A stretch of 64,000 nt of DNA from assembly GCA_973895155.1 (NCBI GenBank), contig OZ316891.1, forward strand, positions 23,993,899-24,057,898, in the 5' to 3' direction. Shown here piece by piece: positions 1-54,012 of this stretch. The DNA is from Marsupella aquatica. Lineage: Eukaryota; Plantae; Marchantiophyta. The translations under genes were made by a program, and so were the position numbers. Every line of letters begins with the position of its first letter. Positions within the stretch are counted from its first letter, which is position 1. The notes below the pieces were generated by a model. It saw only the letters and a list, made by a program, of their open reading frames with translations. It did no database searches and was not told the DNA's origin.

Positions 1-1261
1 CTAGCATAGTCACATGTCCAAGCTTTGCTTTTGACTCTGAATATATTCATTGTCAACCATTGAAGGAGCTACGTGCATGAATTGTCTACTTATTGGGTTG
101 TTTAGGGATTCAATATACAAAAATGACAACTTGAGTAAGGCAGTCTACGGAGGCGCGAAAGAGTCGCGAGGAGTCGAGTTCAGCTACGGCAGTATTCACT
201 TCAGTTGTCTCAATGTGGTTGGCGTGAGCTGCAGGTGAGCTTAGCTGTGTGCACATTTCATGTAAGTCAGGTGGTCGGTGTTTTAGGCATTGCGGAACTT
301 GATTGACCACCCCATGGCTAAGGTTTAAGGTGCGGACTACAACAAATATGTGTTGTTGCTGAAAGTGTTGGTGGTGAGCGACAACTGGTATTGTTTCAGC
401 TAAAGGGAGCACATTGGAGCTTGTGTATCCATGACCTGCGACCGATTGCGGTTGCCTGCTGTTACAATTGCCGAATCAATCACGCACCCAATCTTGCGGG
501 CAGACACAACTTTGCGGGAGTGTTGAAGGTTTAGGGTGAGCAACAGCGGAGAGCTCATTGCTTGGTGGCAGGGTTGAAGGTGGATGATCGGGCTGCAAGG
601 CCAACCGGGGACTTGTTTTGCATTGAGCGATTGCTGCGGATTGCTACGCAGCTTCAGTTAGGGCGGCTTGGTGCTACATCGGCACAGGTAAGGCTGCAAT
701 CCCCTATCGACGCGGACTCACCTCGTGACTGCAAGTATAGTTGTCTAGGTGATGTATGCATTGCGTGTTTAGGGTCTAGGTGACATCGCTGCTAAGCAAA
801 ATTTGTGAGCTGCCTAGGTCCATTGCCGAATGTTGCTTCCTTTAAATTACCTGGTGCCTGCTGTTACAATCGCCTGCTCAATCATGCACCCAATCGCCTG
901 GAGCTCATTTGCCTGGAGCTTCATCCGTCAGATTCAAACTGTTATTGCTGCTCTGCCCTTTTGCCATGGGTTGCCGGCCTACCGGATGCTATCAACAGAT
1001 TAAGAACAAGTCATATCCTAAGTCCCGGTGTTGCAGTGATGTCCCCGACCCTAAGATGCTTTCCAAACTCATCTTTCTTGTTTCCTGTTGCTGCTGATGT
1101 ATGTATGTTCTCCCCTATTTTTGCTTACAGATTGGTCTCTCCACACTTCTTGCTTGACATGATTGTTTTGCTCCTCCCTGTATCAGAACATGCCTTGTGC
1201 CCGGCGGTGGGGTGGGGGGGTGAACAGACGACCTTAAGGTTCACTACATTTCTAGGAACTG

Positions 1262-1425
1262 TGCATCTTTCAGCTGATTTTAGCCGCAAGTTCCCTTGCT
1301 TTCCCCTGTTTTTGCTAAGATCCCTCCCACTAATCACATGCATCTTTCAGCTGATTTTAGCCGCAAGTTCCCTTGCTTTCCCCTGCTTTTGCTAAGATCC
1401 CTCCCCACTAATGACATGCATCCTT
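1262..1425. repeat. 77-bp tandem duplication (2 copies plus a partial third)
   Basis: TGCATCTTTCAGCTGATTTTAGCCGCAAG... starts at 1262 and again at 1339. Confidence 0.9.
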
Positions 1426-2612
1426 TACTTTTCTCGGTGGCCCGTGCGCCTGCCTTCCTACTTTCGTTCTTATGGACTCTCCTTAGGTTTTCATTCACCT
1501 GGTTTTGGACTTTTTGCTCCGGTGGAATCTGTCTTGACAACTTGTGTTTGTTCTAATTGTTAATATCTCAAGAGGGTCGTCAACTAAGCTGAAAGGAGTC
1601 AAAGCTAACTACAAGCTAGCAAAATAATACAGAGAATGCTCCCAAGTCGAGTCAGGAGGAAGTTACTAAAACTAGACCTTCACAACTCTCGAAACTGGAA
1701 AGTGAAATTCAGCGTGAGACACGTAGCTGAAGGCCACAAGGATAACTATATGGCCACGCTGTCCCCCATTCAAGTCCAAAGTCCTCTTCAGATTGTCTGA
1801 ACTCCTATTGAATGTATTGAATAATTATTTCATCACAGAAATTTTCAGAACAAACACGGAAGCACCAGGGGGCTGAGGATTAGGTATTGAGGCTGAAGAC
1901 ATTGAGGTCATAAACTAGGTGTGGTTCGGGTGACAATGTTAGCAACTGATGCTTCTTCAGGGGAACTTCCCATGTGCAGTTTATCCACACATGATTGACT
2001 TTGGTTCTTGCTGTTTTTCTTTTGGTGTACTCTTGAGTTTGGTGTCACTCTATCCTTTCCTATAGCCTCGAAATAGGAACACACCTGCTTAGTGGTCCCC
2101 AATCGCCCAATGATTTATAATGACTGTGTCTAGGTGATGTATGCATTGCGTGTTCATTCCAGAAGAATGAATATGTACACTTTGCACAAACCTGGACAGA
2201 TTTTGAATGTTATTTATCTGAGTTTCTGTTTGTGAGCTCTGACTTGGAGCCTTAACATTTGTGTTTCTGTGGGGCTGAGCAGAGTTTGTTCAGTCTAGAA
2301 GCTGCTATACTGAAGTGATCAGCCTCCGGCTTGGAGGTGAATCTTCAATTTTTTGTGGATCCGAGTGACTTCTGTCCAACTGAGTTTTGCTTTGTCGGGA
2401 CGATTGTGTTTGGCTAAGATGCTAGATTGTGGCTTGTCTTCTTGCTTCCAGCTTGTGTATTTTCAATTAATAGAAGTTGGGAACGAAGTGATAATTGAAT
2501 TTCCTTATATTAAGCATCTTCACCTAGAAACTCAATACATAAACTCCAGGATTCCCTCGGGACATAAAATGAGCCAAATTGTCTCAAAATTGGGAACCTG
2601 CACCCGCACTAC

Positions 2613-2955
2613 TCAAACAATTGTGTTGGGCTTGGTGGCCTTGTAAGTCTTCTTTAGCTTTCGCAATGGAGGTTGAATCTTGCAGTACGTCAAGGGGAAC
2701 TTGATCTTTGAATCATGGAACTGCTTGGTACTTTCTCGCTTGCACAGAGAGACAGGGACTGTCGTAGTCTTCATGATCTGGATGCAAGGGAACCGAACTC
2801 TATGACAAGAAGCCATCTCATCATACATCTGCTCTGCAGCTCCGTTTCTTGTGGTATCACAATATTCCTTGTACATGTTGTGATAACCTGTACGACTCTG
2901 ATACGTGGACCCAGATACCGAAGTTCTTAATTGTGGTGGGCTTCTTTTTGAAGAT
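2613..2955 (-). pseudogene. RPL18A: Captured terminal exon of 60S ribosomal protein L18a (eL20), frameshifted
   Basis: [15 protein letters not shown] / [63 protein letters not shown]...[12 protein letters not shown] matches the plant L18a C-half. It begins right after a CAG acceptor at 2958-2956. Confidence 0.9.
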
Positions 2956-3963
2956 CTGGTAGACACATTATTCAGCATTTGCTAACTTCGAAACTAGAAG
3001 GGTAACACATTAAACAACAGAGAAACTCACAACATCCTCCTTTGGTCCTTCAGAGTCTGTACTTTGATTCTGAAGTTTGACTGAGTTTTTGTTTACTAAA
3101 AGAATGTGACTGTGTAAGAGTTCCGTTTGGCAGTGGATTGGTTGAAGCACTTCATGCTAGTGTGTCATCCACAGCTCTTCAACCAGCTTTCGTCTTCCTT
3201 GTCTTTCACCACTTACGATGACATCAATTCAGCTAAGACCATAGAAGGTTCCAAAGCATCTAACTTGTAAAATCGCATTCTGTTACATCAAGGACTGAGG
3301 TGTTGGGTGCCAAAGGAGACAGCACAACAAACACGCTGAAAAGACTTCAGGACTGGGTTCAACAAGGTAGTGAAGGTGCTTAGAGCCATAGTAAGTATGC
3401 ATTCTGTATCTTTCTCTATTGATGTGAGCTTGTGCATAATGGGAGTTGTAGTTGGCAAGAGTTCCAAATATGAATAGATCCAGAAGTATGTGATCATGTA
3501 CTTGCTCTATAAAGTTCTGAAGATATAAGCATTTTCTGTTAGACCAGGCAACTTGGGAGTTGGTAAGTGTCACCTGCATCTGAGGGGCTACACCGGGGCA
3601 TCAGTGGAGGTTCACTTGCACAACACGACAACCAGTGAATTTTCTCTCTGCTGCAACCTGCAAGGTGAGACTTTCGGTCTTTTTGGATGAAAAAACAGGA
3701 GTTTAATATGATTGATATACATGTCCGTCGAGAATATGGGTTTATCACCAAGCTCTTTGTCTTAGGAAACTCATAAACTCAGAATCAAATATGTACTATG
3801 CACGTTTCATGCTATGTGTATACTATGACCTGTAGTTGGAACCAAGACAATGAGTGGGAACTGATTAGTTTAGGTGGTTGCTGTTGGCGAGGCAAGTCGA
3901 CCTCCTGCTCACCTTGCTCATCAAAGGACGTGAACAGAGGACATCACAACGAAAGCAACACTT

Positions 3964-4413
3964 ATGGTGAGGACCCGCAACGCTGAACATGTGCGACTTG
4001 CACGCAAGGCAGAGATGTTGCGCCTTGAGTATGTCAGACTTGGGATCCTTCCAGCCCAGTCTGCATGGTACTTTGAGTACCCTGTTGTTTCTAGGAACAA
4101 CTACAGCCGGCCTCTACCTGCTTCAGTACCCTTCCCGACATCCTTGGTATTTGTGTCTCTTGTACATGACCCGCCACAAATTAGGTGCCAAGGGTGTGTA
4201 CACAGTTGCCAATATGACTGTCCTGCCTGTAGGGCTTCTGGCCCAGAATTGGATGACCGTTCTCTTGGATGCCGATTTTTGCACAGAGCACAATGTATCA
4301 TCTGGAACCACTCGCCATCCTGCAGTGTGCCTGGTGATGTCACTTGTCCTGCCCTCCCAGACCCCACCACCGGTGACTTTGGTGTCTACACATGTTTGGA
4401 TCACATGCTCTAG
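3964..4413 (+). CDS. Cys/His-rich putative zinc-finger (degenerate PHD-like) protein, 149 aa, transposon cargo
   Basis: ATG-initiated ORF with CQGC-x3-C-x3-CPAC...GCRFLHRAQC...YTCLDH spacing. Confidence 0.5.
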   Translation: MVRTRNAEHVRLARKAEMLRLEYVRLGILPAQSAWYFEYPVVSRNNYSRPLPASVPFPTSLVFVSLVHDPPQIRCQGCVHSCQYDCPACRASGPELDDRSLGCRFLHRAQCIIWNHSPSCSVPGDVTCPALPDPTTGDFGVYTCLDHML

Positions 4414-5028
4414 AGGACCACTTGTCACACCGCATGCACAGACCAGATACCATTGACCTATAGCTTAACACTCTGACTTCAACACAGAGGATATTTACTT
4501 AAAATTTTGATGTATGAGCAATTTTGGGTCCAGGGTTTAGGGTCAACAGTACATAACTTATATCCTATTATGCCTGCACTAAGCAAAATATCCTAATTTA
4601 AGAGGCTAGCAAACTCGCATAAAAGTCTCTATTGAAAGACTGCTTTCATGACTGCTTTAACCTGGTGAACATTGCAACGTTGAATGAATTAATGGGCCAT
4701 GTGATAATATGCAAAATGATTTATGCCTCACTTATTTGTCTCAGCCACTATCATAACCTATTTAGGATGTATAAATTTCAACCCTTATGACACTGCTTCA
4801 TACCAATCCTCTTCGAAGAATGCCTGTTTTACATGTCACGACTATTGTATGTGATTCAAATGCATGAAATGTTGTTGCAGATCTCCTTTGGTGAATCATA
4901 GCCACAATTAAAATTGAGGTGTTGGTGGAGAAATTGTATTAGGGGATCAGTTTTGTGTGTGGGCTCAACATACCAAAAGTATGTGTGCTCTGCATCCTTG
5001 TGTGGCCATTCCAATTCATTGCAGTAGC

Positions 5029-5172
5029 AAATGCCTTTGTACCTTAAATGCTAAATATATTTTACTTTCTGTGCAGTCTGCTAAATTGTAGAGTCTATCT
5101 AAATGCCTTTGTACCTTAAATGCTAAATATATATTACTTTCTGTGCAGTCTGCTAAATTGTAGAGTCTATCT
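5029..5172. repeat. 72-bp tandem duplication immediately upstream of the PHD ORF
   Basis: AAATGCCTTTGTACCTTAAATGC...GAGTCTATCT at 5029 and 5101, with 1 mismatch. Confidence 0.9.
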
Positions 5173-5183
5173 CATGCGCAGGC

Positions 5184-5864
5184 ATGGCACGGCCTAAAAT
5201 TCAAGCCAAAAAGCGTGTGACAGAGGTGAGAAACACAGGTGTACTTGGGGCAGATGCTACTAACTTCTCTGCAAGTCAGATTTTCCAGAAGGCAGCTCAT
5301 TGTTGTGCCATTTGTGACGATGGTGGGGGCCTGGTCATTTGTGAGGGCCCTTGCATGAGGCATTTCCACCTCAACCCGGAGTCTGACCTTGCTGCAGAAA
5401 ACAACTGTCCAGGGGTGGGCCTCCCGTCAACACACCAGGGAGACTGGATGTGCACTGATTGTTTGGAGAAGCAGGCTAAGTGTGCACAGTGTGGGAAGTT
5501 GGGGTCCTATGAGGGCTCTGTTGATGCTGCAGCAAATGTTAGGAAATGTCCAGACCGTTTTTGTGTGAGATTTTTCTGTTTTGAGTGTTTGCCTGCTCAT
5601 GCCACAGCTTGCCCACTTCATAGGTGCAAGGCATGTGGTGAGCATGATGATGACTACTGGACTGACATAGTCCACTGTGCTAGGTGTCCCACTATGTGGC
5701 ACTATCATTGCCTGAAAGACCATCAAGCAGAGGGTTATGCTTGTGACAGAGAAATCTATGATCACTCTGCACATGGTGTTGATCGATGGATATTTTATTG
5801 TCATCGCCATGCCATTGATCCTACCTCGCGCACTCCTGTGAGAGATCACATATCTTGGCTGTGA
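5184..5864 (+). CDS. Stand-alone EDM2-like composite PHD-finger protein, 226 aa
   Basis: CAICDDGGGLVICEGPCMRHFH...C..C...CAQCGKLGS...CPLHRCKAC...CARCPTMWHYHCL...IFYCHRHAID...TPVRDH parallels the EDM2/NSD-type PHD array (CAICDNGG..CCEG.C.RSFH...CPLH.C..C...C.RCP..YH..CL...IYC..H.ID....TPVRDH). Confidence 0.85.
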   Translation: MARPKIQAKKRVTEVRNTGVLGADATNFSASQIFQKAAHCCAICDDGGGLVICEGPCMRHFHLNPESDLAAENNCPGVGLPSTHQGDWMCTDCLEKQAKCAQCGKLGSYEGSVDAAANVRKCPDRFCVRFFCFECLPAHATACPLHRCKACGEHDDDYWTDIVHCARCPTMWHYHCLKDHQAEGYACDREIYDHSAHGVDRWIFYCHRHAIDPTSRTPVRDHISWL

Positions 5865-6456
5865 AGCTGAACATTGTACATGCACAGTGCACCTGATGTG
5901 GATGTACTATTTTTTGAGATTGCAGAGATTCCAATTTTGAAAAGGAGTTGGGTAGGCGAGTTTATATAGGCAGCACTTATCTTGTGCTCTGGCGTCAGTG
6001 GCTGGGTACATGCCTATACAAACTTATCCTTACAAGCCTTCTTGGAAGTATTTAGGCTGAGTGGTCATTTTCATAAACACTTTCATCACACTGCTAAATT
6101 AAAACAGGACTTCTAAGTTGTAAGCGTATAAATTATCAGGCATGCAATTAATCAAATTGCCCTATAAGTTTGTCATTGAATGTATCCTCCTTTACAACAA
6201 AATATGTATGTGCCATGACAAGTTGGTTGCACTTCATTTCACCACGGATATGGATTTTGTAGTATATATTCAAACAATGTCCTGCATCCGTGCAGGTGCC
6301 TAGTACGTATTGTTCACATATCCCTTGTACCTATCAAAATCGGACCTGAGCACCAGTGGGCTAGATCAACTCAAAAAGCAGGAATTTTGTTGTCCTTGTA
6401 TTGTCAGGTGAACCCATTCTTCCAAAATTCACTGTCATCACGTAGGGTGTGTGTAC

Positions 6457-7329
6457 ATGGAGCCTGGTAAACGTAGAAAGTGTGACCACCCAGCAGTGTT
6501 TACAGGGGTCAGAGCGATTTTGGTCCATGGCCAGCATGGGTTGACCAAAGTGCATTGGCCAACTGTACAGAAACGATTCTCTGAGCTCCATGGCACTGTA
6601 GTTCAGGACATCACTCCAGAGACTACACATGTTGTTGCAGGGACATGGCTATCAGTGATAAAGAAGTGGTCATGGTCCTACATGAATTCTGCAATTACTA
6701 AGCAAGGCCTAAAAGTAGTTGAGGCCTCTTGGATCACAGATTCCATAGCACATAAGATTGTACAGGATACTGAGCAATATGAGTTGTGGGAGGATGAAGA
6801 AGCTACTGCATCAGCTTGGGCTGAACAAGAAGTCTGGGAAGCAAAGGCACGGCTTGCTGATCTCCAATATGGACCTGTACTCAACAAAGGACAGAGCTCT
6901 ACAAGGCTGAAGAGTATGTTGGCTGAGGAGACGAAGCAACCAACCCCCATTCTGAAAGGGCTGAGCATGGTATTTGTGGAGGCGGGAATTGGAGAGGTTA
7001 AGTGCAAAGTGTACAAGTCCACAGTGCTTGACCTAGGTGGGACAGTGGAGGAGAATATAACAGAGGACACCACTCATGTCATTACTAAGTCATATCCCAA
7101 AGCCTGCCGCAAGTTTGGGAAGGGAGACATTCGCTTTTATGTCATGTCCCATAATGTGTTTGTGGTTTCATATGCTTGGCTTGTGGAATCAGTAGCAGCT
7201 GGGAAGCGTCAAAACCCAATGGACTATGATCTTTTTGAGGCCTGGCCACGGAAGGGTCAGGATCCTTACAGAGAGGACTATGAGACAACAAGTGAGGAAT
7301 GGGTCATTAGCGATTCTGAATCAGAGTGA
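6457..7329 (+). CDS. Tandem BRCT-domain protein (DNA polymerase lambda-type BRCT), 290 aa
   Basis: Two repeats of F/L.G...LG/HG.V...IT..TTHVV...W..DS/ES. The second repeat (VFVEAGI...KFGK...YAWLVESVAAGKR) resembles the plant Pol lambda N-terminal BRCT. ATG at 6457. Confidence 0.8.
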   Translation: MEPGKRRKCDHPAVFTGVRAILVHGQHGLTKVHWPTVQKRFSELHGTVVQDITPETTHVVAGTWLSVIKKWSWSYMNSAITKQGLKVVEASWITDSIAHKIVQDTEQYELWEDEEATASAWAEQEVWEAKARLADLQYGPVLNKGQSSTRLKSMLAEETKQPTPILKGLSMVFVEAGIGEVKCKVYKSTVLDLGGTVEENITEDTTHVITKSYPKACRKFGKGDIRFYVMSHNVFVVSYAWLVESVAAGKRQNPMDYDLFEAWPRKGQDPYREDYETTSEEWVISDSESE

Positions 7330-7762
7330 GGAGTAGTAGCATCAGTTTGGACACAAGTTTTTTTGTATAAATCAGATCATTGAAATAAATGTGATCTTTG
7401 AACTAATGTACCTTGTTATGGTTGGTGGCAGTTGGGCTTATTTTACTGTTGGCGGATTGTTGTTTCCTGCTGCCTGGGGGTGTCACTGTAAACGTACATG
7501 CAGAGGCGGTACATTTGAGGACAGCGGAGGAGGTGGTGACACCCTCCAACATTTAGAAATTTTGTGTCATTCACTTGACAATAGGTACACTACTTGCGAA
7601 CCTGTTTTTTTCTTTTGGGGTGGTTTAGGGTTTGTGAGAATTTAGTACACGTTATGTTAACTCTTTTGGCAAATACAGTCAGGGATATATGGAACACAAA
7701 TACCACCATTAGGCATCCTTGTTCACTGCTGTCCATGACTGCAGAGCTCCCAGCCTGTTACA

Positions 7763-10700
7763 ATGCACCCTGGTCACCACCCTCCCCAGACCCAGCCCAG
7801 GGCACAGGCACTGCCTTTGCATCATCCCACAAGGATATCACGCCATGATAATAAGCTTTGGCAGCGTGAAAGGTTACGAACCAGACTTTCAGGAGCCAGT
7901 AGGATGAGATGTCCTTGTGCAATCTGCCAAGGATCCCGTACCAGGGGTCTGAATGAGGTTTGGCGGCATATCGCGGTTCATGGAAGAGATCCACGACATC
8001 GAGTTTGGAATGATCCTGCAGAGGAAGATTCTTCCGACGAGGAGTGGAGGTTAGAATTTGATGCTGCCAATGCTGCAAGACGGGCAAGTGAGGTTCTGCC
8101 TGGTGCATTTGAAAATGTTGTAGCTGGTCTCTGTGGGTTGTCAGCTCTCCAATGGGATGGTGCTCAGGCAGCACCACGTGACGAAGGAATTCATGTGGAA
8201 GAGATGGTGAGAGACATCTTCCAAGACTTGGATGCATTTCATGATGGGCTGGACAATGAAGAGGATACGGCTGCAGATGCAAGTGTGCCCCCTGTCGAAG
8301 AGCCTCTTGATGAGTTTGAGATAGGGCAGGAAACCCCTGGGCATGATGGGATGTTTGGCTCTCCCCTGCAAATACAGGAAGGCAGGAAGTCTTTGTACCC
8401 CGGTAGCAAATGTTCTAAACTGGGATTTGTCATCATGTTCCTGAACATTTGCGGCAACCACAATGTCCCCAACGTTTTGGTTTCTGAGTTGTTGGCATTC
8501 TTGCGAACAACTGTGCTACCAGATGGTAATATTTTGCCCAAGAACATGTACGAGGCAAAAAGATGCATATCTAATCTTGGATTGAACTATGATTCGATCC
8601 ATGCCTGTCCTGATGGGCATGTTCTTTTCAGAAAGGAGTATAAAGAATCGTTGACATGCCCTAAGTGTGGGAAGCACATGTATCGGAACTTAGGAAAGTC
8701 TATGGTTCCCGCCAAGGTACTTCGTCATTTTCCACTCATTCCCAGACTTCAGCGGATGTTCAGAAGCCGTGCCATCTCGGAGATGATGACTTGGGCAACT
8801 GACAAGAAAAGTGATGATGGGCTACAACGACATGCTGCAGATTCAAGGCAATGGAAACTCATAGATGAGATGTATCCCGAATTTGCTGCTGAGCCGAGGA
8901 ATGTCAGACTTGGGCTGTCATTGGATGGGGTAAACCCATTTGGAGACAAGAACAACAAATTTTCATGCTGGCCTGTAACTATTTTGAATTATAACCTTCC
9001 TCCTTGGATGACTACAAAGCGATTTTTTGTTCTGATGGTCCTACTGATACCAGGGCCAGACAGTGCTGTATCTGCCAACATAGATGTGTTTCTGGCTCCC
9101 CTAGTGGAGGAATTGAGAAAGCTTTGGGAGGAAGGAGTTCTCACATATGATGTCCTACAGAGGCTTGGGAGGTTAAACCCATTCATCCTTAGAGCCATTG
9201 TCATTCTGACTATAGCTGACTACCCAGCCCATGGGATGATATCAGGCCAAACAACAAAAGGATATTGTGCTTGTACTATCTGTGGGCGCAATGTCACCAG
9301 TGAGTACTCCAGAGCCCTGCAGAAAGTGATATACATGGGCCATCGTCGTTTTCTGAAGACAGATCACCCTTACAGAGAAAGACAGGCACTGATTGCACAC
9401 TTTGGCAATGAGATTGAGCAACGTGGACCCCCGGCACGAGTGACCAAAGAGGAGATCAGGCAGTGGGGAGCACTGAGAGATGACTATATCAAACGAGGGG
9501 GCAGGGAAGATGGAGTGAGTGATCCAATAAAGCGATATGGTGTAAAAAGACTGAGCATATTGGACTTGGAGCTCAAGTACTGGAGGGTAAGCCTCTTGGA
9601 GTTGATGCTAATTGGGATACATGTTTTGGTTCAGAGCATGTGCATTCATTTCGAAGAGAGAGACTAAACTTGAGGCATTTCCTGACGCTTTTGCATTGCA
9701 ACGATGCAGGAGTTTGAGCCAAGCAAACATAACATTGATGTTATGCACATTGAAAAGAATATTTGTGAGAGTCTACTCAGATTCTTGTGTGGAGAGAAAG
9801 ACACTGGTTCAATGAGATTGGATCTTGAACAGAGGGGAATGAAACCCCATCTTTGGTTGAGGCCACATGCCCACAGAGCTGATGTGCTCTTGAAGTACCA
9901 AGCACCCTATGTTCTGACAGACACAGAGTGGGAACTATTTGTGCAGAGGTTGAGTTCTTTGAAGGTTCCTTCAAACTATGGCAGTGCTTTCAAGAAGCAT
10001 ATCATGACTAGAAAGCTTGGTAGTATGAAAAGCCATGACTACCATATGTTGATGCAACAGGTGTTGCCTTTATGCCTGAGGGGCCTGTTGCAGAAGCCTG
10101 TTCGTACTGTGATCATGCGACTCAGTGATGTGTTTCGTCGTATTTGTGTGAAGGTTTGGGATGAAACACACTTCCCACAACTGACAGAAGATGTCGCTCA
10201 GGTGCTGTGTGACCTGGAGATTTATTTTCCTCCCGCATTTTTTGATGTCATGACCCACCTACTTGTCCATGTTGTGGAAGAGCTACACCAATTTGGGCCT
10301 GTGAGTGCTCGTTGGTTGTACCCTTTGGAACGGTACATGAAGCTACTCAAAGGTCACGTGAGAACATATTACAAACCTGAAGCAAGCATGGCTAAAGGTT
10401 ACATCAAGGATGAGACTCTGGGATTTCTGACCGAATACATAGCACAATATGAGCATGTGAAGACCAGGGTGTGGAATTCTGATGAGGAGGAAGGGGTGGT
10501 AGGTGAAGTACTGGAAGGGGCTGCAACCACAAAGAACCTGACCATATCTATGAGAGACTTGGCACATGACTTTGTATTGCACAACACTGTGGTGATGGAA
10601 CCCTGGATACAGTGAGTGCATACATGTGCTATAATCCAGTTCATGAGCTTAAATGTTGTGTTCGTGTGGTTTTCTCCTTCAGCCTGTTCATGTTTACCCA

Positions 10701-11494
10701 AGCTAATGCTGTGTGGTTGTTCGTTCAGGGAGTATGAGTCATTGAAGGCGGCCCATCCCACTGCAGGAACAACTTTTCCAGGTTTCATGGAGTGGATCAG
10801 AGTGGCAATTAGAGAGCATCACGAGACCCACCCAGACATGGATGCAGATGTTTACCTACTGTCTAATGCCCCTAGCCTGAAAGTGAAGACTTACAAACGG
10901 ATGAGAGCATATGGGAATCACTTCCGAGTGAAGGATGGTGACAGTGCCTACAGGGTGACGAATGACTGCGGGCTCATCACTGTATTTGAGCAACAGAGCC
11001 ACAATCACGACAGGGCCTGGATGGAGATGGGATATGTGGGAGAATTAGTTGACATATGGGCTCTGGACTATGGGGCGGTGTCCAGTCCTGTGATTCTTAT
11101 GAAAGGTTCATGGGTGCGGCAGGATTGGCTTGGTAACAGGGCTACCATGAAGAGAGACAACGACGGTTTCTTGCTGGCCAATTTCAGAGGGAAATTGCCC
11201 AAATGGTCTGAGCCATTTGTGTTTCCTAGTCAGGTGGAGCAAGCTTTCTTCCTGGATGTGGAAGACTCCCCAGGTTGGCGTGTAGTGTGTCATAAACAGG
11301 CCAGGCAACGCCGGATGGAAGGATCAAACCTTGAGTTTCATTTACACTCTCATAGTGCCTTTGATCGTCGGCGTTCAGACCAAGTGCCTGTAGTTCATGA
11401 TAGCGGGGACTTCATTCCTGTGACAAGGGTAGATGCATTTGCTGAAGGAGGCGAATTCAGAGATGCAGATGCCAACAGTGTGCCTGTGCCATGA
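7763..11494 (+). CDS. tnpD: CACTA TnpD transposase (transposase-associated Zn domain, Transposase_21/Tnp2, DUF4218, DUF4216); exons ~7763-9586, 9710-10611, 10729-11494
   Basis: CPCAIC...H, IHACPDGHVLF, RNVRLGLSLDGVNPFG, YNLPPW, DYPA, HNIDVMHIEKNICES, MKSHDYH, FFDVMTHLLVH, WLYPLERYM, EPFVFPSQVEQAFF. GT-AG introns join the three ORFs in frame. Confidence 0.93.
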
Positions 11495-11650
11495 GTAATG
11501 TGAATTGTTTGCATAGACATTAGTGAGGGGAAGGATGTGTAATAAAGTAATTCTGAAGCAACACAGATGTATGGATGGATGCCTGGTGATTGTGGTTGCA
11601 TTGTGTTATACGGGGTGACCATAGATGACATGTTTTTGTGGTCCAGTAGG

Positions 11651-14600
11651 ATGGAACAGAGTGACACAGAGATGTGTGAGTATGAAAGGAAAGCTATGGA
11701 ACAACGAGCATACATGAAAGCCAAAATCGCAGAACTGGATCTGGAAAAGGATGTGGCTGAATTGTAAGGGAACGATTCTCAACTACACCCCTCCGCTGAG
11801 TTTGTGTGACATGAATAGTTCAATGTGGCACTGAAATTGTGACTGTATTCTCATATTGGAATGTCGCAGAGCCACAGCATTTTCAAAGAAACAAAAGGAG
11901 TACGCAAGAAGGGTGACCAGCACTATCTCTGGGCCTGTGCGTCGGAGTGACAGGTTGAGCAAGAAGGTCGTACCTACAATGGCAGAATGTGGAGATGACA
12001 TTGATGCTGCACAGGTGGGTGCAGACACTAGACAAGAAGATGCAGATGATGAGTATTTTCCAGAGGAAATGGATGAGGATGGGGGTTATGAAGATGAATA
12101 CATTGCAGAGCAGCCCCAAAAGAAACATGTAAGTAGTTTTCCCAACAAGGTTTTGAGTTAAAAACTCTTGTTTAGAGGTTTCATATGTTCAGTACTACAC
12201 ATATGTACCTTGCTTAGTTCCTGACATTGTAGTTGGTGATGTGATGCAGCGTCCTGCCAGTTCTGTTTTGCCTTCGAAGCCTGTGCATGCACCATACCAG
12301 CAGGGGGGGCTGACCTCTGATCAAGGTTGGCGAGGTGGTAGTAGTGGTAGATCCCAGGCTGGTGCCCAAAACTATGGCAGGGGGCAAGCTCTAGGTTATG
12401 CCCGTGGTAGAGGCAGAGCAGGTCCAAACCCACAATCTCGTGGGTATGGACGTCCACCTCAACCGTGGGGATGTGAGTATATATCTATATGCCAGTTCTT
12501 TGTGAAGGCATGGCACTCCTGAATTTCAGACTGCATATCAATTTTTGACATTGTTTGGGATGTATTGGATTCAGACAACATGAAATTCTGTCCACCTGCC
12601 ATTGCATGCAGATTCTGCCCAACCTGATTGGGCAAATGCTAGTAATGATCAGTTCCAATGTCCACAAGGACAGACATGGGTTGAACCAGGTTGGGAGGAT
12701 GGTGGTGGGTCGTGGAATGAACAAGGTTGGGAAGGTGGTGAAGGTAATTGGCAGGGATATCAAAATTCAGTACCTACAAACGCTGGAAGAGGAGCAGGTA
12801 ATGTCTGATCTTGTCAGCAATGGAAGAACTCATTATATGTGGAGTCCATTCACGTGGGGGGGACTCTGCACATGTATAATGATAGAAAATGTATGTGTGC
12901 AGGTTGGACAGTCGAACCATCGACTCAAGTATTCACTAATGCCCCTATGCAGATGCAGCACGGAAGGGGGACAGGTATGTCGGTGAATGTTCAGTTGTTT
13001 TCCTACAGTTTGTACTTAGTTTTCAGTACATATGTTTGCACACACATACCTAGAAAGTGACATCATCCGGCCCCTGTACTAGGCTGGACAGGTGGTCCAG
13101 GGTCGCAACAATTTCAGAGTGCAGTCCCTGCACAAGCATCTACAGGCAGAGCTACAGGTATGTATGTTTGAAGAATTTTTCTTGAAGTGAAGCATTGAAT
13201 GTTGCCGTCATCCATTCTGCTATATGTAGTTCTCAAGCATGAATGGCATTGTATTTTCCCAGGTGGCTTCAGAACCCCAGGTAGGGTGAATGAAGGGGTG
13301 GCCAATACAACGCCCAGTACTACCGAGAGCAGTGCACGAGGGGAGGTGACAAAGAAAGGGAACGTAAAGTTGAATGAGAGACAATGGGTGGATGCTGAGT
13401 GTCCTCGCAAGAACCGATGGCATGCTGATTTGAAAGCTGAAGTATTGCGTTGGTTAGATGTGAGTGTTATTAATTTTAAAAAACAGCATCCAAAAGATTG
13501 GAAGACTGTATGTGAAAATGTTGCTGCCAAATGGAATTATGTGGGCAGTGATGATGGCGTGGACATAGGTTGCCTAGAGAGTACAGCAGGTAAAATTATC
13601 AAGCAAGAGAGGTGGAGAATGCATAAGGCTTGGAAGGAAGGTGGGGAGAAGCCAGATATGCCTCCACCAGCCAGTTGTGATGATAAAGTGTGGGCAAGGT
13701 TAGTAGCTTATTTTGTAACAGATGCTTCAAAAAAGAAGAGTTCACAGATGACCGAGGCCAGGTTGAGTGTTCAGAACCCTAATCTGACAGGAAGGACCGG
13801 CACTGCACCGACAGCTAAACGTTTGGTAAGAATGAATGGCCTAGCTATGTAATTTATGCTACACTATGTACTATTTTTTAGTGTAAACCCATACATGTAA
13901 ACTTTGTTTTTTAGTGTACGTTCCCTGAATATTGATCGATAACTTGTGTTTGCCATGCATGTGCAGAAAGCCCAATTGGGGCAAAGCCCTTCAAAAGAAG
14001 AGTTGAGGGCTGAAATTGTGAACACCCGGGCTCAAGAGGGTGCATCTGAATCCTCCAAGCATGTAAGTTATATGAGTTCTGATTGGTAATTGAATGACCT
14101 GCGTTGAATTTCAGGTGTACACTGTATATAACATTGATTGTGCATATATTGCCCAACATTTCATATGGAGTGATTGAACCTATACCCCTGTGTCATGTAG
14201 GGAGGTGGATCTTCACTTACAGAGATAAGTGGTCGTTTGAAGGCTGTCGAAACATGTCTTCCAGAGATCAATGAACGCTTGAATTCATTGACTGACTTGT
14301 TCCATGTGAACTTCAAGACATTAATGGAAGCTGTTGTGTCGGTGAGAGATAAAATTGATTCCAATTCTGCAGGAGTTCCACCATCACCACTTGAGGTGGC
14401 AAAGTCGATGCACTCTTCTGGCATGCCAACGACATGTAGGCTTGAAGGTAAGGCCTTTACAACTGTGTGGGATATGATTATTAAATGTATAGTTTGAATT
14501 GACATTGTTTGTTGAATGTGTTATTTTCAGTAACATATATTGTGGTTGTTGTGTCCATAGAGAATAAGACAGGTGCTACAGAGAAGAAGTATGAGAACCT

Positions 14601-15357
14601 GGCAAATACTCGCTGTAATTTAGAGGCAACAAAGTTGCAGTCTGTACAAGCAACTTGTTTGACAGAGGGCAGTCAACCATGTTTGGATGAGGATGACATT
14701 GGCAAGGGAGTGGATGATATCAATGTTGGGGCAAATGAGGATATCAGCAAGCATGACAATGATACCATTGAGCCAGATTCATGCTATGTAGATCTTGACT
14801 CCATTGCAGAGATAAATGATTTGCAGAATGTATCATTCTCAATGACAGGTGTGCCTCTTGTTGAGATAAATCCAACCAAAGAGTTAGTTGGTATGACACT
14901 CCCAGGTGATGAACCTGCTACTGTGACAGTCCTAACAGAGGAACCTACTGAGCCTAGCTTCACTACTGTGAAGAGAGGAAGCATGCGCACACGAAGCAAG
15001 TCTGCTGGTGGGAGCAGAGCCACGTCAAAGGTTTCATACAAACCTCCAAGAACAGTGCTGGCAGAAAGATCTAAGGTGGAAGTGGGGAAAGCACCTAATG
15101 CTGAGGGACAAAGTGGCTTGTTAGCTGTTGATGAGAGTGGAACACGAGTAGGATTTGCCAGAGTGCAGGTTGGTTCCACAACGTTCCATGGCAAGAGGAT
15201 TCCCCCAGGTTATTCAGTAGTGTTAGTCACATTACTAGTGAAACCTAAAGCTGTCCTTCCCATTCCAAACACAAATGATGATCCTCCTCAAAAGACACTT
15301 GGAGATGCTGCAGGTTCTTTGGTATTATGGCCAAGCAAGTTCATAGAGGATCCATAA
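11651..15357 (+). CDS. tnpA: CACTA TnpA-like multi-exon gene (Ptta/Transposase_24-like exon 13263-13825; Tnp1-like C-terminal exon 14561-15357)
   Basis: Chain of GT-AG exons downstream of tnpD. Motifs W.RLVAYF...KKKS.QM..AR...TGRTG and FHGKRIPPGYSVV.V...LPIP...TLGDA.GS.VLWP. Internal small-exon boundaries are approximate. Confidence 0.75.
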
Positions 15358-15856
15358 CAATGTCATGCCATTATTTGTTTGTAGTGTGAGTCATGTTATG
15401 TAGATTTTAGATGTCAAGAAGCAGTACAAGAATCATGTCCTCTTGGAGATTCATAGTATCATGCATGTGCTTTCAGTTATCTCATCCTACAATCATCAAT
15501 TATGAGTTCCTGTTTTGTCTAAATTACATTGATCACATTGTAAACTATTCCATTGGAATTCAAATGATCTTCATTTTTTAGCAAGATTGTGATTGTGTTT
15601 AATTCTTATGAATGTTTTATGTAGGATCTGCTTATATGATGCTTTGTTTCATGTGGATGTCATTCATGCTATGTTCATTTCTTGTATTCAATGTGTTATA
15701 TTTCTAAAGTTAGAACATCAGGTTTCTATGTATTGTAATGTCGAGTGCTCTCTCTTCTTATGAACTGTCCCTCTGTGTTCATTAGTCATGGTTATAACTT
15801 GCATGTGAACCTTATTAGTTATAAACATGAGTATATAGAGTCCCAAATGGTTCTGT

Positions 15857-16212
15857 TGTGTGACGCGGGCCAGGGTCTCCATTGGTCTCTCCTGTGACAC
15901 TAAATAGTCACACGCTAGTCGTTGTTGAATGCGGGTAAGTCATGTATGTGACTTACGATGTGACTCGCTGAAGTCATATTGCAGTCACGTCGAAACAAGG
16001 CTAGACTCCACAATAAAGTCACAGATCAGTCACAAATGGGTATCAAGCAAGTTGCAAAGCCCAGTATCAATAGTGACTTCCATTTTTTGGTCTCAACTTT
16101 TGCAACTCCAAGGGTCACAGCGTGGGTCAAGTCACGTTGAGTCACAATGAAGTCACATGAGCCAAAATGAGTCATATATTGCGGTCTCAGTTCACCTCGG
16201 ATTCTTCTAGTG
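15857..16212. repeat. CACTA right subterminal AGTCAC/GTGACT repeats and terminal inverted repeat
   Basis: More than 10 AGTCAC/AGTCAT/GTGACT motifs in both orientations, ending in CTAGTG. One AGTCAC also occurs at 8-13. Confidence 0.8.
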
Positions 16213-19200
16213 CGAGGGCGTTTCCGCGGCTTAGCGGCATGGGACGCTGCTAACCTTCTACTACTACTATTAACATTTTACACACATATACTGGATAGAT
16301 CCTTCATCGGGTCATGAGATACGTAGCCGGCCTAATATAGGCCTTCCCTTGTCTTCCCCTGTCTTCCCCTCCGTCTTGTTAGGTATGTTTGGATTCCGCC
16401 GCCGGAATGATCCCCAATAGGCTTGGTTAAGCCGCTAAGACCTCTCTCAGCTCGACACATCCAACTATCACTCCCCTGCTTACTTTCCTTCCTTCTGTTG
16501 ATGTGGGCACTCTTCACACAAGTTAATGCGACACACAAATAGCAAAATGACTCATTCTGACTGAGTCATACCATGCACTTGCCATACAAACAGTACATCT
16601 CATACACAAGTTCTGCGAACTAAGCCGTGAGGCCAACTCTATTCAGCTCTTAGGCATGAGGAAACATGAATATACACAAGGGTCACTGTATGACTAACCG
16701 AGAGCTTCTCGTACTACTTGATCCCAGCCCGGCTGGTGCAAACTAAAAACTTGCTAAAGAAGAGGCCCTGAGCTCCCCGCTGCCCAGGTACTTATCCTGG
16801 TAGTGGATCCGCCATTCTTTGCATCGTAAGCCTAATCTACCTGACAGTAATCTACTTGCCCGAATCTACCTATGTACAGCAAGGCAGGAGCACAAGTGTT
16901 GCTCCTACCAGTGGAACCGCAATCCCACTAAGCTAAGTGTCAGGGCCGCTCCTGGTTCTGATCCTAATCCTAAACGTGGAGATCCGCGCCCGCCCTGCCC
17001 ACTCACGCCTCCTCCCTCCACGTCCGCCCTCCCTAAAAGGAACGACGCCCTTGCACCGTCACGACACCGGTGGTGGATCCTCAATGGACGCCCCCAACAC
17101 TTCCTCCTCAGCCACTGCCGTTGGCCCGCCTACTGACAGATTACCTGCCCTTGACCGAGTCAACTCTCCATCGGCCTGACTGGGTCCACCTTCGGCTTCA
17201 GCCTCGACACCGGCCTCGGCAATACCCACGGCTTCGGCCTCAGCCACTCCCACGGCTTCGGCCTCCCCTTCCCCTAGGGTAGTTGGATCCTTAGCCGTGA
17301 CCCTGTCTGGGGTCGGTGCTGGGTCTACCTCCTTGATCACCACGGCCTGTGAAGTCATATTACTCCTTGACCTTGGAGGTTTCCGCTTCTTCTTCGTTGG
17401 TGGCTCGGCAGCTGGTCCCTTCCCCTTCCCACTTACTTCCGGCACTGGTGCAGTTGACGCGGCTTGTCCTTCGGCAATTACCACCCCTGGTAACTGGTTT
17501 GTCCCAACGGGAGATGGACCTGCTGCAGCTAAGCATTTAAATACTGCGGCTTGTTTCTTCAGCCGCTCTGTTTGGTTGTCGGCCCGCCGCTGTAGGTTCT
17601 CCATCTTCCTCGTGATTTCCTCCAACTCCTCTTGGGTTTCATCCAGGTCCTTACGTGCCCCCTCCAGCTCGTTTTTGGCCTCCTCCTGCTCCCTGTGGGC
17701 TTCCTCCAATTCCTTCTTCAAGGTAGCCCTCTCCTCCTGGGTTGCTCTTAGCTCCTTGTCGAGCTCTGCAATGATGACAGACTCCATCTGGTTCATCTTG
17801 GCGTAAGTCTGTTCGAGCATCTCGTCCTTCTCCCTTAGGTCGGCCTTGAAGCTGGCCGTCAGGGACGCAAGCTCCTGCTGCAGCGCCATAATCCCTTGAT
17901 AGGATTTCCCTAACTCGACCTCCTTCTGCTCAAGGGCTCCGCGGATTTTCTCGAGCTCCCCTTTCAACGCCCATTCCTTTCTTTGGGTCTCCGCCATGGC
18001 CCGGCTGTTGGCTGTTATGTGGGCCTCCTCTGTATTCTTCAGCTCTTGCTTCCACTTCTCCCTCTCTTTGATCGTGTCGGCCAACTCTTCCTGCGTCTGA
18101 GTCAGTTTATCCTTGATATTCTGATTATCAGCCTGCGCGGCGTCCAACTGCCCCTGCATGATGTTCAGCTCATGTCGTTTAATCCGCAGTTCATCTTGGG
18201 CTTTCTTGGCCGCCCTTAGATTTTCAATCTCGGCTTCCATCCTCCTAAGCCGCCGAATGACCTCGTCCTTCTTGCTTCTCTCTAAAGCCACCGCTTCTTC
18301 TAATTGGTGCTTCTCCAACTGCTCCTTGTGAAAAAAGGGTCCTACCTCCAACTCCTCTCCAAAGATGCCGAGCGCAAGTTCCCCACACATCTCACCATAC
18401 TCCATGGCTCTATTCTTAGCGTAGGTGGAGTAAGTAGAAGTGATCGGCATCGCCCATCGTGGCCTCTGCTCCCACGCCGTCCTGCGGATCTCTTCAATCG
18501 TGGCTAGAGGTTTGCTTCCTTTTTCGGCTAGCCGCCTGATGTCCTCCGGCCAATCTCCTCCTGGTAAATCCTTTTCCTTAGCCAGGGCGGCCTCTTCCTC
18601 CTGCTTGATTCGCTCCTGAAATTCCTGCACCGTCTGTTTTATGCCGTCAAAGCTCGGGGGAGCGACATCTGGTGGGGGAGACTCAGGGCTACTCTGCTGG
18701 TTGGGGTCCCCTCGCACTACCCTTGGAAGTGTGGGGACAAACCGGCCACAGGTCCTTACTCCTGGAACGTGATGGTCCGACCCATAGCCGGAATTATCAT
18801 GGCTGCAGTCCTCCACTGCCTCCTCTACCTCTTGGACGTCCGACTTCTCCCTCTCCTCTTCGTTGGTAGGAGCTTCAGGCAATTCTGCCTCAGATTCGGA
18901 GCTTGAGGTTCCCACGTACATTCGAACACCTGGCTTGGATTCCGGCCTGATTCTCTTCTTGTCTCCAGCAAAGGGGTTTTCTCTTGTGAGCCGGTGTAGG
19001 CCTACCTCTGTAGTAGTGTCCTGCATTGTTGCCGTTGCCATTGTTGTTGCCGATGCCGATTTCTTTTCTTTCTCCAGTAGTTTCAGCAGACTCTGCATGC
19101 CTGGTTGCTGCATCGGCAAGTCTTCCTTCCTGGGCCTAAACACCTGCTCGATCGTAGGACTAACAGGTGGTTGAGGCTTCTCAGCCAACGGCCTCGGCGT

Positions 19201-20772
19201 TGGAGCTTCCTCGGGTGCCCTTACCTGCAGGGGAAGTACCGGGGCAAAAGTCTGACTCTGGCATACCGGCACAACAGCGGCATGTGATAGCCAAGCTGCG
19301 ACACGCTCCCCATGCCGATTACCTGCTGCTCCTCCTTTAAGATCTTCTTCAATTGGTTGAGGAGGTACCCGTTGTAGTCCCGGCTTGGGTCTGGCCTTTC
19401 TGCCAGATAGACCTGTGCCTTGCCGATCTCTGCCCTCGGTAAGTTACAATGCATGGTCACCCGCAAGAAGTCGATCATCTCTCCTATGTGCGGGTTGGTG
19501 CAGGTGTTCCGGAAGAAGCCATTCTTCGTTGATGGCCCGGGGAACGACCGGAACTCCTTGTCAGGCAAGGTCTTCCTGGTATCAACTTTGGTCTTATTGC
19601 CCATCGGCAAGCCAAACACTTCGGCAATCACCTTGGGAGTAAGATAGAAATCCTTCCCATATATCCTCGTGCAATTGGTCTCGGGTTCCCATGACCCCAC
19701 GAATTCTAATAGGTCTGACTCCGGTACCTCCGGCTTCAGCCATGGTAATCTTACAAAGGCCTCCAAGCCGGATCCGGCCATGAAGCCTTGGTACTTCTTG
19801 GTCTGCATGGCCGTAAAGCATGCATCCTCCTCCCGTGCAAAATGTAGTTGCACCTCCACCGGTAGGGTTGCCGCCCAGCCCTTCCAGGTGTCATCCCTGG
19901 TTGGAATGGCCTTGATGGGATCGACCTCCTCCTCTTCGGCTTCTCCCTGCCTCCTGCTCTGCTGCTCGGCTGGCTTCTTTGGTGCCGCCGACCTCGTTCT
20001 TTTTGCCGGGGTGGCTTCATCGTTGACGGCCCCCTTCCTCTTCATCTCTGCTGCCGTGGAGGTTTCTCCTAGCACCGTTGCCCGGGTCCACCTTTCCGTG
20101 CTACCCTTTAATTCCCAGTGTATGTCGTTGCAGTTCTTGATGGCCTCTCGGATGCCGACGACGCTGTCTTTGCAAAACAGAAGATCGTCGAGTTGATTGG
20201 AAGTAGGCGTCCACAGGAACTCGTCCTTGATGAGTTCGCCTCCTAAGAAAGCCGTCTTCTGCAGCTCCCACAATCGAGCGAGCTCCTGCCGTTCTCGAGC
20301 TGCCCTTTCTGACTCCTCGTCCTCGTAAGTCTTGATGTACTCAGTTGCCCGTTCGAACAGGCATCCCCAGAAATGTGCCGCTTGATTGACGTTGCTCATA
20401 CCCTCCTTAGGTCGATCGTCGGTATCTACTCTCTCCCCGAGTGCTTGCCTAAGCAGCTGACAGTAGTTGGCCTCCCGTAGTCGTCTGCCTAGTTTGTGCT
20501 CGCAAATGAGCCACCATCTCCTGCAAGCGCTCCTTACCCCTCTCCTCTGCCGGTCCTTCTTCCCGTTGATCCTTCCTAGCCGCCGACGCTTAACGCGCCC
20601 TAACCCTAATCGGGTTTTCACCCTCAGCCTTACCTCCGGCCTCTGCCCGGGTTCCATGGTTGCCCCTAATTGTTTATATTTTCCTTGTTTTGTCACTATT
20701 CTAAGGTGTTCCTAGGGTGCCTTCCTGCTTTACCCACTTAACCGGCCGAGTGATTCCTGTCTAGGCATCACA
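16213..20772 (-). repeat. 3' LTR of element A (LTR1), last ~75 bp displaced by the CACTA insertion
   Basis: Starts TGTGATGCCTAG directly after the PPT and is near-identical to 26973-31631. Confidence 0.92.
17059..20657 (-). pseudogene. LTR-encoded ORF (PMD-like domain + coiled coil) with a 1-bp deletion near 19256
   Basis: The 491-aa and 737-aa ORFs join into the single frame seen in other copies (TCTGACTCTGG here vs TCTGACCTCTGG). Confidence 0.85.
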
Positions 20773-29900: not shown

Positions 29901-31631
29901 TGTTGTTGCCGATGCCGATTTCTTTTCTTTCTCCAGTAGTTTCAGCAGACTCTGCATGCCTGGTTGCTGCATCGGCAAGTCTTCCTTCCTGGGCCTAAAC
30001 ACCTGCTCGATCGTAGGACTAACAGGTGGTTGAGGCTTCTCAGCCAACGGCCTCGGCGTTGGAGCTTCCTCGGGTGCCCTTACCTGCAGGGGAAGTACCG
30101 GGGCAAAAGTCTGACTCTGGCATACCGGCACAACAGCGGCATGTGATAGCCAAGCCGCGACACGCTCCCCATGCCGATTACCTGCTGCTCCTCCTTTAAG
30201 ATCTTCTTCAATTGGTTGAGGAGGTACCCGTTGTAGTCCCGGCTTGGGTCTGGCCTTTCTGCCAGATAGACCTGTGCCTTGCCGATCTCTGCCCTCGGTA
30301 AGTTACAATGCATGGTCACCCGCAAGAAGTCGATCATCTCTCCTATGTGCGGGTTGGTGCAGGTGTTCCGGAAGAAGCCATTCTTCGTTGATGGCCCGGG
30401 GAACGACCGGAACTCCTTGTCAGGCAAGGTCTTCCTGGTATCAACTTTGGTCTTATTGCCCATCGGCAAGCCAAACACTTCGGCAATCACCTTGGGAGTA
30501 AGATAGAAATCCTTCCCATATATCCTCGTGCAATTGGTCTCGGGTTCCCATGACCCCACGAATTCTAATAGGTCTGACTCCGGTACCTCCGGCTTCAGCC
30601 ATGGTAATCTTACAAAGGCCTCCAAGCCGGATCCGGCCATGAAGCCTTGGTACTTCTTGGTCTGCATGGCCGTAAAGCATGCATCCTCCTCCCGTGCAAA
30701 ATGTAGTTGCACCTCCACCGGTAGGGTTGCCGCCCAGCCCTTCCAGGTGTCATCCCTGGTTGGAATGGCCTTGATGGGATCGACCTCCTCCTCTTCGGCT
30801 TCTCCCTGCCTCCTGCTCTGCTGCTCGGCTGGCTTCTTTGGTGCCGCCGACCTTGTTCTTTTTTCCGGGGTGGCTTCATCGTTGACGGCCCCCTTCCTCT
30901 TCATCTCTGCTGCCGTGGAGGTTTCTCCTAGCACCGTTGCCTGGGTCCACCTTTCCGTGCTACCCTTTAATTCCCAGTGTATGTCGTTGCAGTTCTTGAT
31001 GGCCTCTCGGATGCCGACGACGCTGTCTTTGCAAAACAGAAGATCGTCGAGTTGATTGGAAGTAGGCGTCCACAGGAACTCGTCCTTGATGAGTTCGCCT
31101 CCTAAGAAAGCCGTCTTCTGCAGCTCCCACAATCGAGCGAGCTCCTGCCATTCTCGAGCTGCCCTTTCTGACTCCTCGTCCTCGTAAGTCTTGATGTACT
31201 CAGTTGCCCGTTCGAACAGGCATCCCCAGAAATGTGCCGCTTGATTGACGTTGCTCATACCCTCCTTAGGTCGATCGTCGGTATCTACTCTCTCCCCGAG
31301 TGCTTGCCTAAGCAGCTGACAGTAGTTGGCCTCCCGTAGTCGTCTGCCTAGTTCGTGCTCGCAAATGAGCCACCATCTCCTGCAAGCGCTCCTTACCCCT
31401 CTCCTCTGCCGGTCCTTCTTCCCGTTGATCCTTCCTAGCCGCCGACGCTTAACGCGCCCTAACCCTAATCGGGTTTTCACCCTCAGCCTTACCTCCGGCC
31501 TCTGCCCGGGTTCCATGGTTGCCCCTAATTGTTTATATTTTCCTTGTTTTGTCACTATACTAAGGTGTTCCTAGGGTGCCTTCCTGCTTTACCCACTTAA
31601 CCGGCCGAGTGATTCCTGTCTAGGCATCACA
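26973..31631 (-). repeat. 5' LTR of element A (LTR2, 4659 bp)
   Basis: TGTGATGCCTAG...CACCACA termini, followed by the PBS. Confidence 0.93.
27894..31516 (-). pseudogene. LTR-encoded ORF copy with the same 1-bp deletion as LTR1
   Basis: The 491-aa and 745-aa ORFs are nearly identical to the other copies. Confidence 0.85.
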
Positions 31632-53808: not shown

Positions 53809-54012
53809 GTCTGACTTGATCATCATCGGTAATTGTTCGATGTATTTTGTATGGGTAACGTGGTCCGATGTTATTAAAATCGGAACGGTAGTTTCCAAAG
53901 CTTATTATATCGGACAAACCGTTTCTTAAAATATTGGACATGTCTGATAGAAAGGACATGGGACGCCTCTTTTAGGCCGCGATCAAAGCATCAGAAAAAC
54001 TGCAAAAATGTA

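Follow-up and report, generated by a model that had tools for sequence, protein, structure and literature searches.

A stand-alone EDM2-type PHD array from a family of short proteins, probably an accessory gene of a CACTA transposon

Described systems and the reading frame

The PHD fingers of the plant protein EDM2 are reported to bind H3K9me2 (PMC7472560, PMC9910501), and the domains attributed to this protein include RFD, PGR and ELP (PMC7529245). In PHD fingers which read unmodified H3K4, acidic residues before the first Cys are described to bind Lys4, and sometimes Arg8 and Lys9 (PMC3241642); acidic residues ahead of the first Cys are also reported in PMC11724302. PHD domains have been described as accessory domains of CR1, Rehavkus, Chlamys and Chlamydomonas Gypsy elements (PMC8557442, PMC9940879). 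A preprint (10.1101/2024.04.02.587720) indicates that VANC, an accessory protein of VANDAL elements, probably arose by capture of a host chromatin gene that was then repurposed.

The window analyzed here is a stretch of 64,000 nucleotides from Marsupella aquatica (contig OZ316891.1). A sequence-only reading had proposed that a CACTA element in this window carries an intact, stand-alone EDM2-like PHD reader. The frame in question (5184..5864, + strand) starts with the ATG at 5184 and ends with a TGA at 5864. As claimed, its 226 codons are free of stops; an ATG ORF of at least 226 aa was obtained in 1 of 300 shuffles of positions 1-7700. The encoded protein (termed PHD ORF protein below) consists of a 40-residue leader and an EDM2-type triple zinc-finger (PHD) array, identified by alignment (residues 41-222; 5304..5849, + strand), which includes the EDM2-specific C-terminal motif. 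Because residues 1-40 are unrelated to EDM2, the array makes up about 80% of the protein. The attribute "intronless" is valid for the genomic reading frame only. This frame is open, but an acceptor-like AG (5180-5181) is found directly 5' of the ATG, and donor-like sites occur within the ORF. The upstream region contains a 72-bp tandem duplication with acceptor-like sites (5029..5181, + strand), which is the probable end of a 5'-UTR intron.

EDM2 ancestry and the family of short proteins

Residues 41-222 align with an annotated EDM2 from Cryptomeria (33% identity over 212 columns, E 5e-30). A protein from Marchantia is 36% identical, and identity to any long EDM2-like protein is at most 36%. 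Among 110 long EDM2-like proteins, 26 Cys/His columns are conserved at a level of at least 80%. The PHD ORF protein is unchanged in 24 of these, which agrees with the claim of largely conserved zinc ligands. Judged by their spacing, 24 of the conserved columns would represent three sets of eight zinc ligands. The two altered columns are at position 98 (His to Ala) and at position 132 (His to Cys), and the Cys at 132 is common to 14 of 15 short relatives. The motif that closes the EDM2 array (Tyr-Cys-x-x-His ... Thr-Pro-x-Arg-x-His) is also present. Alignment of the array, ligands and C-terminal motif thus confirm both the EDM2-like origin and the stand-alone form.

Three Pfam models (PHD-1st_NSD, PHD_NSD and PHDvar_NSD) match in this order, each below its curated cut-off, and NSD2 matches the protein with E 0.011. 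Four long EDM2-like proteins were compared to the window. Their remaining parts have no match below E 0.4 outside the PHD ORF, and the RFD, PGR and methyltransferase-like ELP domains are absent from the locus by this comparison. Because the four proteins match the window solely at the ORF, the latter does not represent an exon from a local EDM2 gene.

An AlphaFold2 model, computed from 13 sequences, has a mean pLDDT of 71.9, with values below 50 for most of residues 1-26 when the single chain is modeled. The top Foldseek matches of the model are PZP and NSD tandem PHD domains. Because the TM-scores are low (0.19-0.28), the model supports just an assignment as "tandem PHD-like". The predicted complex of residues 31-226 with residues 1-30 scored 0.02 in a run without controls.

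The PHD ORF protein belongs to a family of short proteins (217-245 aa) which are 37-82% identical to it and end with the same closing motif. Five relatives of nearly the same length have 82, 75, 53, 37 and 38% identity; they have their own start and stop, and these are shared down to 37% identity. An unrestricted HMMER search returned 249 matches. Among the best 150, the top seven are short and the long ones are EDM2-like; the long proteins among the matches listed have 33-49% identity and fall outside the short clade. A fused form was not encountered among longer proteins, where 3101 candidates yielded three matches (one plant EDM2-type, two animal NSD), which is weak evidence. The ORF thus has many relatives and is not restricted to one copy, and the ligands are kept down to 37% identity.

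All short members that were looked up are from unannotated short contigs, and cluster look-ups for 19 short-family and BRCT proteins returned no informative annotation. One protein (P0013) has a JGI label as "ribosomal protein L37AE/L43A", which is contradicted by its alignment with the short family. Several relatives are truncated or frameshifted, which would fit decaying transposon copies, yet would also fit neutral cargo. Among candidate stretches, a related locus was found in 1 of 147 from metagenome contigs, in none of 93 from viral contigs and in none of 19 from prokaryote genomes. The single case (L001, 1.9 kb) is a stand-alone ORF of 41% identity, in which a stop precedes finger 1. Apart from the ORF, L001 does not resemble the window, and neither a transposase nor a BRCT domain was found within 0.6 kb on either side. 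Separately, a number of short or truncated EDM2-like proteins (P0014, P0031, P0039, P0043, P0044, P0068 and others) are outside the short family; they have retained the His ligand and, in most cases, also the acidic residue.

In a tree of 148 cut regions (13 of 161 sequences, which have too little of the array, were left out), the short proteins form one branch with support 1.00. A smaller tree of 54 rows represents 12 short proteins, 38 of the 110 long EDM2-like proteins and 4 NSD-like rows. Here, the short proteins are again one branch (100/100; stem 0.84), placed outside the seed-plant and Marchantia groups. This branch joins at an open fork among the EDM2-like groups, and the EDM2-like rows are on one side in 53% of the bootstrap trees. 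Because of the open fork, the tree settles neither the donor nor the age of the branch, the placement of which may also be distorted by its long stem. The comparison with host EDM2 thus returned one distinct clade, but did not fix a nesting within the host orthologs.

The CACTA element and its accessory genes

The element has an intact transposase gene (TnpD; 7763..11494, + strand) with three exons (7763-9586, 9710-10611 and 10729-11494), for which the splice sites were assigned by GT-AG and subjected to a splice test. The 1163-aa product has no internal stop and matches the Pfam domains Transposase_21 (E 2e-70), DUF4218 and DUF4216. It is followed by a multi-exon TnpA-like gene (11650..15357, + strand), which was assembled from ORF pieces and has approximate boundaries; its match to Transposase_24 (E 1.5e-4) is below the curated cut-off. 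Repeat analysis revealed the right subterminal repeats and the right TIR (15890..16212, + strand), which ends with TAGTG at 16212.

Beyond this point, repeat comparison revealed a Ty3/Gypsy-type LTR (16213..20772, - strand), which hosts the CACTA insertion about 75 nt from its end. The CACTA element has inserted into this LTR, since the LTR resumes past 16212 at the point where four other copies carry about 75 further bases. The insertion is young, as the LTR pair is 99.1% identical. The window contains a nested Ty3/Gypsy-type element with LTRs of 4.6 kb, of which there are five near-identical copies (16213-20772, 26973-31632, 35054-39686, 42270-46907 and 49148-53809) and a diverged one (31632-34977). 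Long open frames are found within these LTRs, either a pair of 496 and about 800 aa or a single frame of 1015-1029 aa. They have a coiled-coil region and match no Pfam family with confidence; it is unusual for LTRs to be coding at this size. Another repeat family (59454-61994, + strand) has ORFs of 249, 250 and 340 aa, the middle one resembling the LTR-borne ORF by eye.

Three ORFs are co-oriented, whole and located upstream of the transposase gene. One is the PHD ORF; the sequence-only reading mentions neither the other two nor the N-terminal motif described below. The second, ORF-A (3964..4413, + strand), codes for a Cys/His-rich protein of 149 aa which has no Pfam match below E 0.09 and no Atlas match; it is probably a second accessory gene. 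ORF-A has a basic N-terminus, and in three of four runs no other part of the element is covered as deeply by contigs. The third ORF (6457..7329, + strand) codes for a stand-alone tandem-BRCT protein of 290 aa (Pfam BRCT, E 2e-13, two stretches). It has two full-length relatives (294-295 aa; 60% and 54% identity), and its matches to PDB are weak (best: BRCA1, E 0.007). It may resemble DNA polymerase lambda and could possibly derive from it. BRCT domains act in DNA-damage signaling. The ORF is probably a third accessory gene and possibly links the element to DNA repair.

Further upstream is a captured fragment of ribosomal protein L18a (2613..2981, - strand; Pfam Ribosomal_L18A, E 3e-18), which has a 1-nt deletion in some contigs. 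Judged from these features, it is decaying cargo and an internal control for neutral capture. Further captured fragments were not detected at positions 1-3900 (23 pieces, no Pfam match below E 0.01). In the region 1-3400, the contig depth is lower in a stepwise manner, and this region looks like variable cargo.

The statement that the element carries the PHD ORF is an inference, because the left end of the CACTA element is outside the window. A left TIR was not found at positions 1-16000, neither downstream nor upstream of the ORF: the best candidate agrees in 11 of 13 letters, none has a CACTA start, and there is no subterminal cluster. At position 8, there is a single heptamer of the subterminal repeat, which does not suffice to locate the left end. 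Membership is supported by contig bridging and by the contig depths, for which it must be kept in mind that contig depth is not copy number. No RNA run was listed among the sequencing runs with matching contigs, which has no bearing on expression. Among the contigs listed for run X1, depths are equal in the spacer between the PHD and BRCT ORFs (5918-6466: 1641), in the BRCT ORF (6787-7166: 1799) and in three parts of the transposase (7938-8454: 1554; 10384-10920: 1782; 10965-11550: 1775). Among the same contigs, the depth is 859 at 1805-2221 and 320 at 132-543. In run X7, a contig of 1381 bp with about 95% identity bridges the BRCT ORF to the transposase start. Among the contigs listed, none connects the PHD ORF to the BRCT ORF. 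From the contig bridging and the equal depths, we conclude that the PHD ORF very probably resides inside the CACTA element.

The ORF might instead belong to a neighboring element or to a host gene family, with a 5'-truncated CACTA copy beside it. The missing left TIR, the stepwise drop of contig depth toward position 1 and the lack of a transposase or BRCT domain around L001 would fit this assumption. It is nevertheless very unlikely, as the equal depths in run X1 begin in the spacer, 54 bp past the stop codon, and extend through the transposase, the BRCT-transposase bridge is found in a diverged copy, and no foreign TIR or LTR was seen between 5864 and 7763. In run X6 (5237-5904), three of four PHD ORF bins have a summed depth of 1700-6500, and the flanks are below 20 at 80% likeness. 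This is a hint of an abundant diverged family in another organism; the depth is not copy number here either.

The ORF could also be a piece of EDM2 that was captured as neutral Pack-CACTA cargo and is still open by chance; this possibility was addressed by comparing variants. The variants counted are the best-supported 40 of 913 and 40 of 454, and all counts are tiny. Among the variants listed, 4 of 5 are silent in the PHD ORF and 4 of 4, at third codon positions, in ORF-A, while none of 4 is silent in the L18a fragment; the values are 0 of 1 for the BRCT ORF and 3 of 6 for the transposase. None of the 24 indels listed (of 128) is in the PHD ORF, and one is in the L18a fragment. When the PHD ORF is compared to L001 over 193 codons, third positions differ in 132 cases, first and second positions in 79 and 78. 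The ligands, which are fixed across 37% identity, and the silent-site and third-position bias argue for purifying selection, and a conserved PHD family under such selection is the supported interpretation. The alternative of neutral evolution thus does not agree with the silent-site bias, the retained ligands and the lack of an indel among those listed. Captured gene fragments are reported from the 5' part of CACTA elements (PMC8978399), and the ribosomal protein fragment shows that this region contains such cargo. Neutral cargo is, however, hardly to be expected to retain intact ligands at an identity of at most 36% to long EDM2-like proteins, to have a start and stop in common with relatives down to 37% identity, and to show changes that are fixed throughout the family. 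We therefore consider this explanation to be very improbable. We are highly confident that the transposon maintains the PHD ORF as a gene and that the product has a role of some kind in the nucleus.

The leader, the reading surface and possible functions

Starting from the binding of EDM2 PHD fingers to H3K9me2-containing marks, the sequence-only reading had inferred a heterochromatin reader or decoy. The altered surface of the array speaks against a protein that reads such marks in the manner of EDM2. An acidic residue at -3 from the first Cys is found in 87 of 105 long EDM2-like proteins and in none of 21 short-family proteins, 20 of which have a His at -2. The mean charge over the 30 residues before the first Cys is -10.5 in the long EDM2-like proteins and +2.7 in the short family. 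In addition, a stretch of finger 2 comprises 7 residues in the short family compared to a mode of 27 in the long proteins, corresponding to a loss of 20 residues, and the other EDM2 domains are gone. Thus, a function as H3K9me2 reader is doubtful. Some H3 binding may remain, however, because the Gly-x-Trp pocket for Ala1 of H3 is kept (Trp or Phe in 16 of 16, Gly in 10 of 16) and because the acidic residue following the second Cys is retained.

If the protein were a faithful EDM2-like reader, it would bind H3K9me2 on heterochromatic nucleosomes and would recruit or displace ASI1-AIPP1-EDM2, resulting in full-length transcripts of the element. The 24 of 26 retained Cys/His columns, the C-terminal EDM2 motif, the Gly-x-Trp pocket and the reported binding of H3K9me2 by EDM2 are in favor of this function. 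They are opposed by the missing acidic residue at -3, the switch from an acidic to a basic leader, the shortened finger 2 and the absence of RFD, ELP and other EDM2 domains, so that we regard a faithful reader as unlikely.

The leader has a conserved basic N-terminal motif (5187..5213, + strand), which was detected by comparing the leaders of 21 family proteins. It consists of a small residue, followed by Arg at position 2, Lys at 4, Ala or Ser at 7 and often Lys or Arg at 9. The motif is found in 15 of the 21 leaders (shuffle mean 0.30; a value as high was reached in 0 of 5000 shuffles) and in none of 105 long EDM2-like proteins. Lys or Arg occupies the ninth place in 14 of 21 leaders, and Arg-x-Lys directly follows Met and one further residue in 10 of 21. 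These numbers have to be viewed with the constraint that the pattern was picked after viewing the alignment, that the family members are related, and that the comparison covered shuffles and long EDM2-like proteins. The spacing equals that of Ala1, Arg2, Lys4 and Lys9 in H3. Position 7 presumably corresponds to Ala7 of H3. Basic N-termini which serve nuclear import or tethering to DNA or nucleosomes are common. Because they are common, and because the pattern is post hoc and the members are related, the data establish conservation and not mimicry. The motif could equally be an arm for nuclear import or for DNA/nucleosome tethering. The respective H3 positions are named in PMC11724302 and PMC3241642, and histone mimicry by viruses is described in PMC11738798.

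A transposition cofactor is another function to be considered. Together with the BRCT protein and the transposase, the PHD ORF protein would tether the complex to particular (repeat-rich) chromatin or would pass broken ends to repair. This would be consistent with the co-orientation of the PHD ORF with an intact BRCT ORF and the transposase gene, with the general role of BRCT domains in DNA-damage signaling and with the insertion into the LTR of a retrotransposon, which is, however, one insertion site only. PHD fingers are accessory domains of several transposons (PMC8557442), but those reported are parts of larger proteins and not stand-alone. Furthermore, runs X5, X6 and X7 cover the PHD ORF far deeper than the BRCT ORF and the transposase start, which is a weak hint of other neighbors. 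We consider such a cofactor to be improbable.

The PHD ORF is intact and belongs to a conserved short family. We favor, tentatively and at slightly less than even odds, that it is a CACTA accessory gene whose product acts against silencing as a rewired chromatin adaptor or as a decoy, probably devoid of the EDM2-style grip on the H3 tail. An ancestral element would have captured an EDM2-type array long ago, and selection would have kept the array. Residing within the TIRs, the ORF would travel with the CACTA element. The basic motif would lead the protein to chromatin or would compete for host proteins that bind the H3 tail or modify H3, while the zinc-finger surface would bind a partner from the host or the element. 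The benefit would be relief from silencing, by analogy with VANC.

A more far-reaching version, which we rate as somewhat less probable than the faithful reader or the cofactor, is that this CACTA lineage encodes a three-gene counter-silencing kit. It would combine an H3-tail mimic (Ala1/Arg2/Lys4/Ala7/Lys9 spacing) with a disarmed EDM2 array as a decoy for H3K4/H3K9 writers and readers or for the EDM2 complex, and its tandem-BRCT protein would co-opt DNA repair. If the tail were an H3 mimic, histone mimicry, which is known from viruses, would reach plant DNA transposons.

Comparison with known systems

Only a few counter-defense proteins encoded by plant transposons are known (VANC, TnpA). 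A family that derives from a reader enabling transcription across heterochromatin would represent a new example of how transposons repurpose host chromatin modules. The fixed changes (loss of the acidic cradle, gain of a basic tail, shortening of finger 2) hint at which surfaces of the EDM2 array matter. As the protein is small and its coding frame intronless, binding and anti-silencing are directly testable. PHD fingers on transposons are already known, and an EDM2-derived stand-alone gene on a CACTA element was not found in the literature searched, with thin coverage of subscription papers, Repbase and the supplements of bryophyte and fern genome papers.

The PHD ORF protein (226 aa) shares the Cys/His pattern and the C-terminal motif with EDM2 (about 1200-1600 aa). 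It lacks, however, the RFD, PGR, ELP and proline-rich parts and belongs to a separate clade. It has a basic motif in place of the acidic leader, a Cys in place of one His ligand, and a finger 2 that is shorter by 20 residues. The N-terminal PHD I-II-III cassette of NSD1/2/3 is also similar, as the three sub-cut-off NSD matches occur in order. Identity to these proteins is 28-33%, and the PHD ORF protein is devoid of SET, PWWP and the rest, but has the plant EDM2 C-terminal motif.

Like VANC of the VANDAL elements (Mutator), the PHD ORF is probably an accessory gene of a plant DNA transposon and probably derived from a host chromatin gene. VANC is, however, from another superfamily and has a MAIL1-like fold rather than zinc fingers; its anti-silencing activity has been shown, while that of the PHD ORF protein is putative. 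The CR1, Rehavkus, Chlamys and Gypsy elements also encode PHD domains, but these are single fingers within larger proteins where the sources give the layout. In the present case, the complete EDM2-type triple array constitutes a separate gene, which is probably located on a CACTA element. As in Pack-type CACTA elements (PMC8978399), cargo is found in the 5' region, and the size (>16 kb) and the extra ORFs resemble the enlarged En/Spm elements with 4-5 ORFs reported from Chondrus (PMC6431247). While the cargo of Pack-CACTA elements consists of fragments, the frames for the PHD, BRCT and 149-aa proteins are complete and seem to be under selection.
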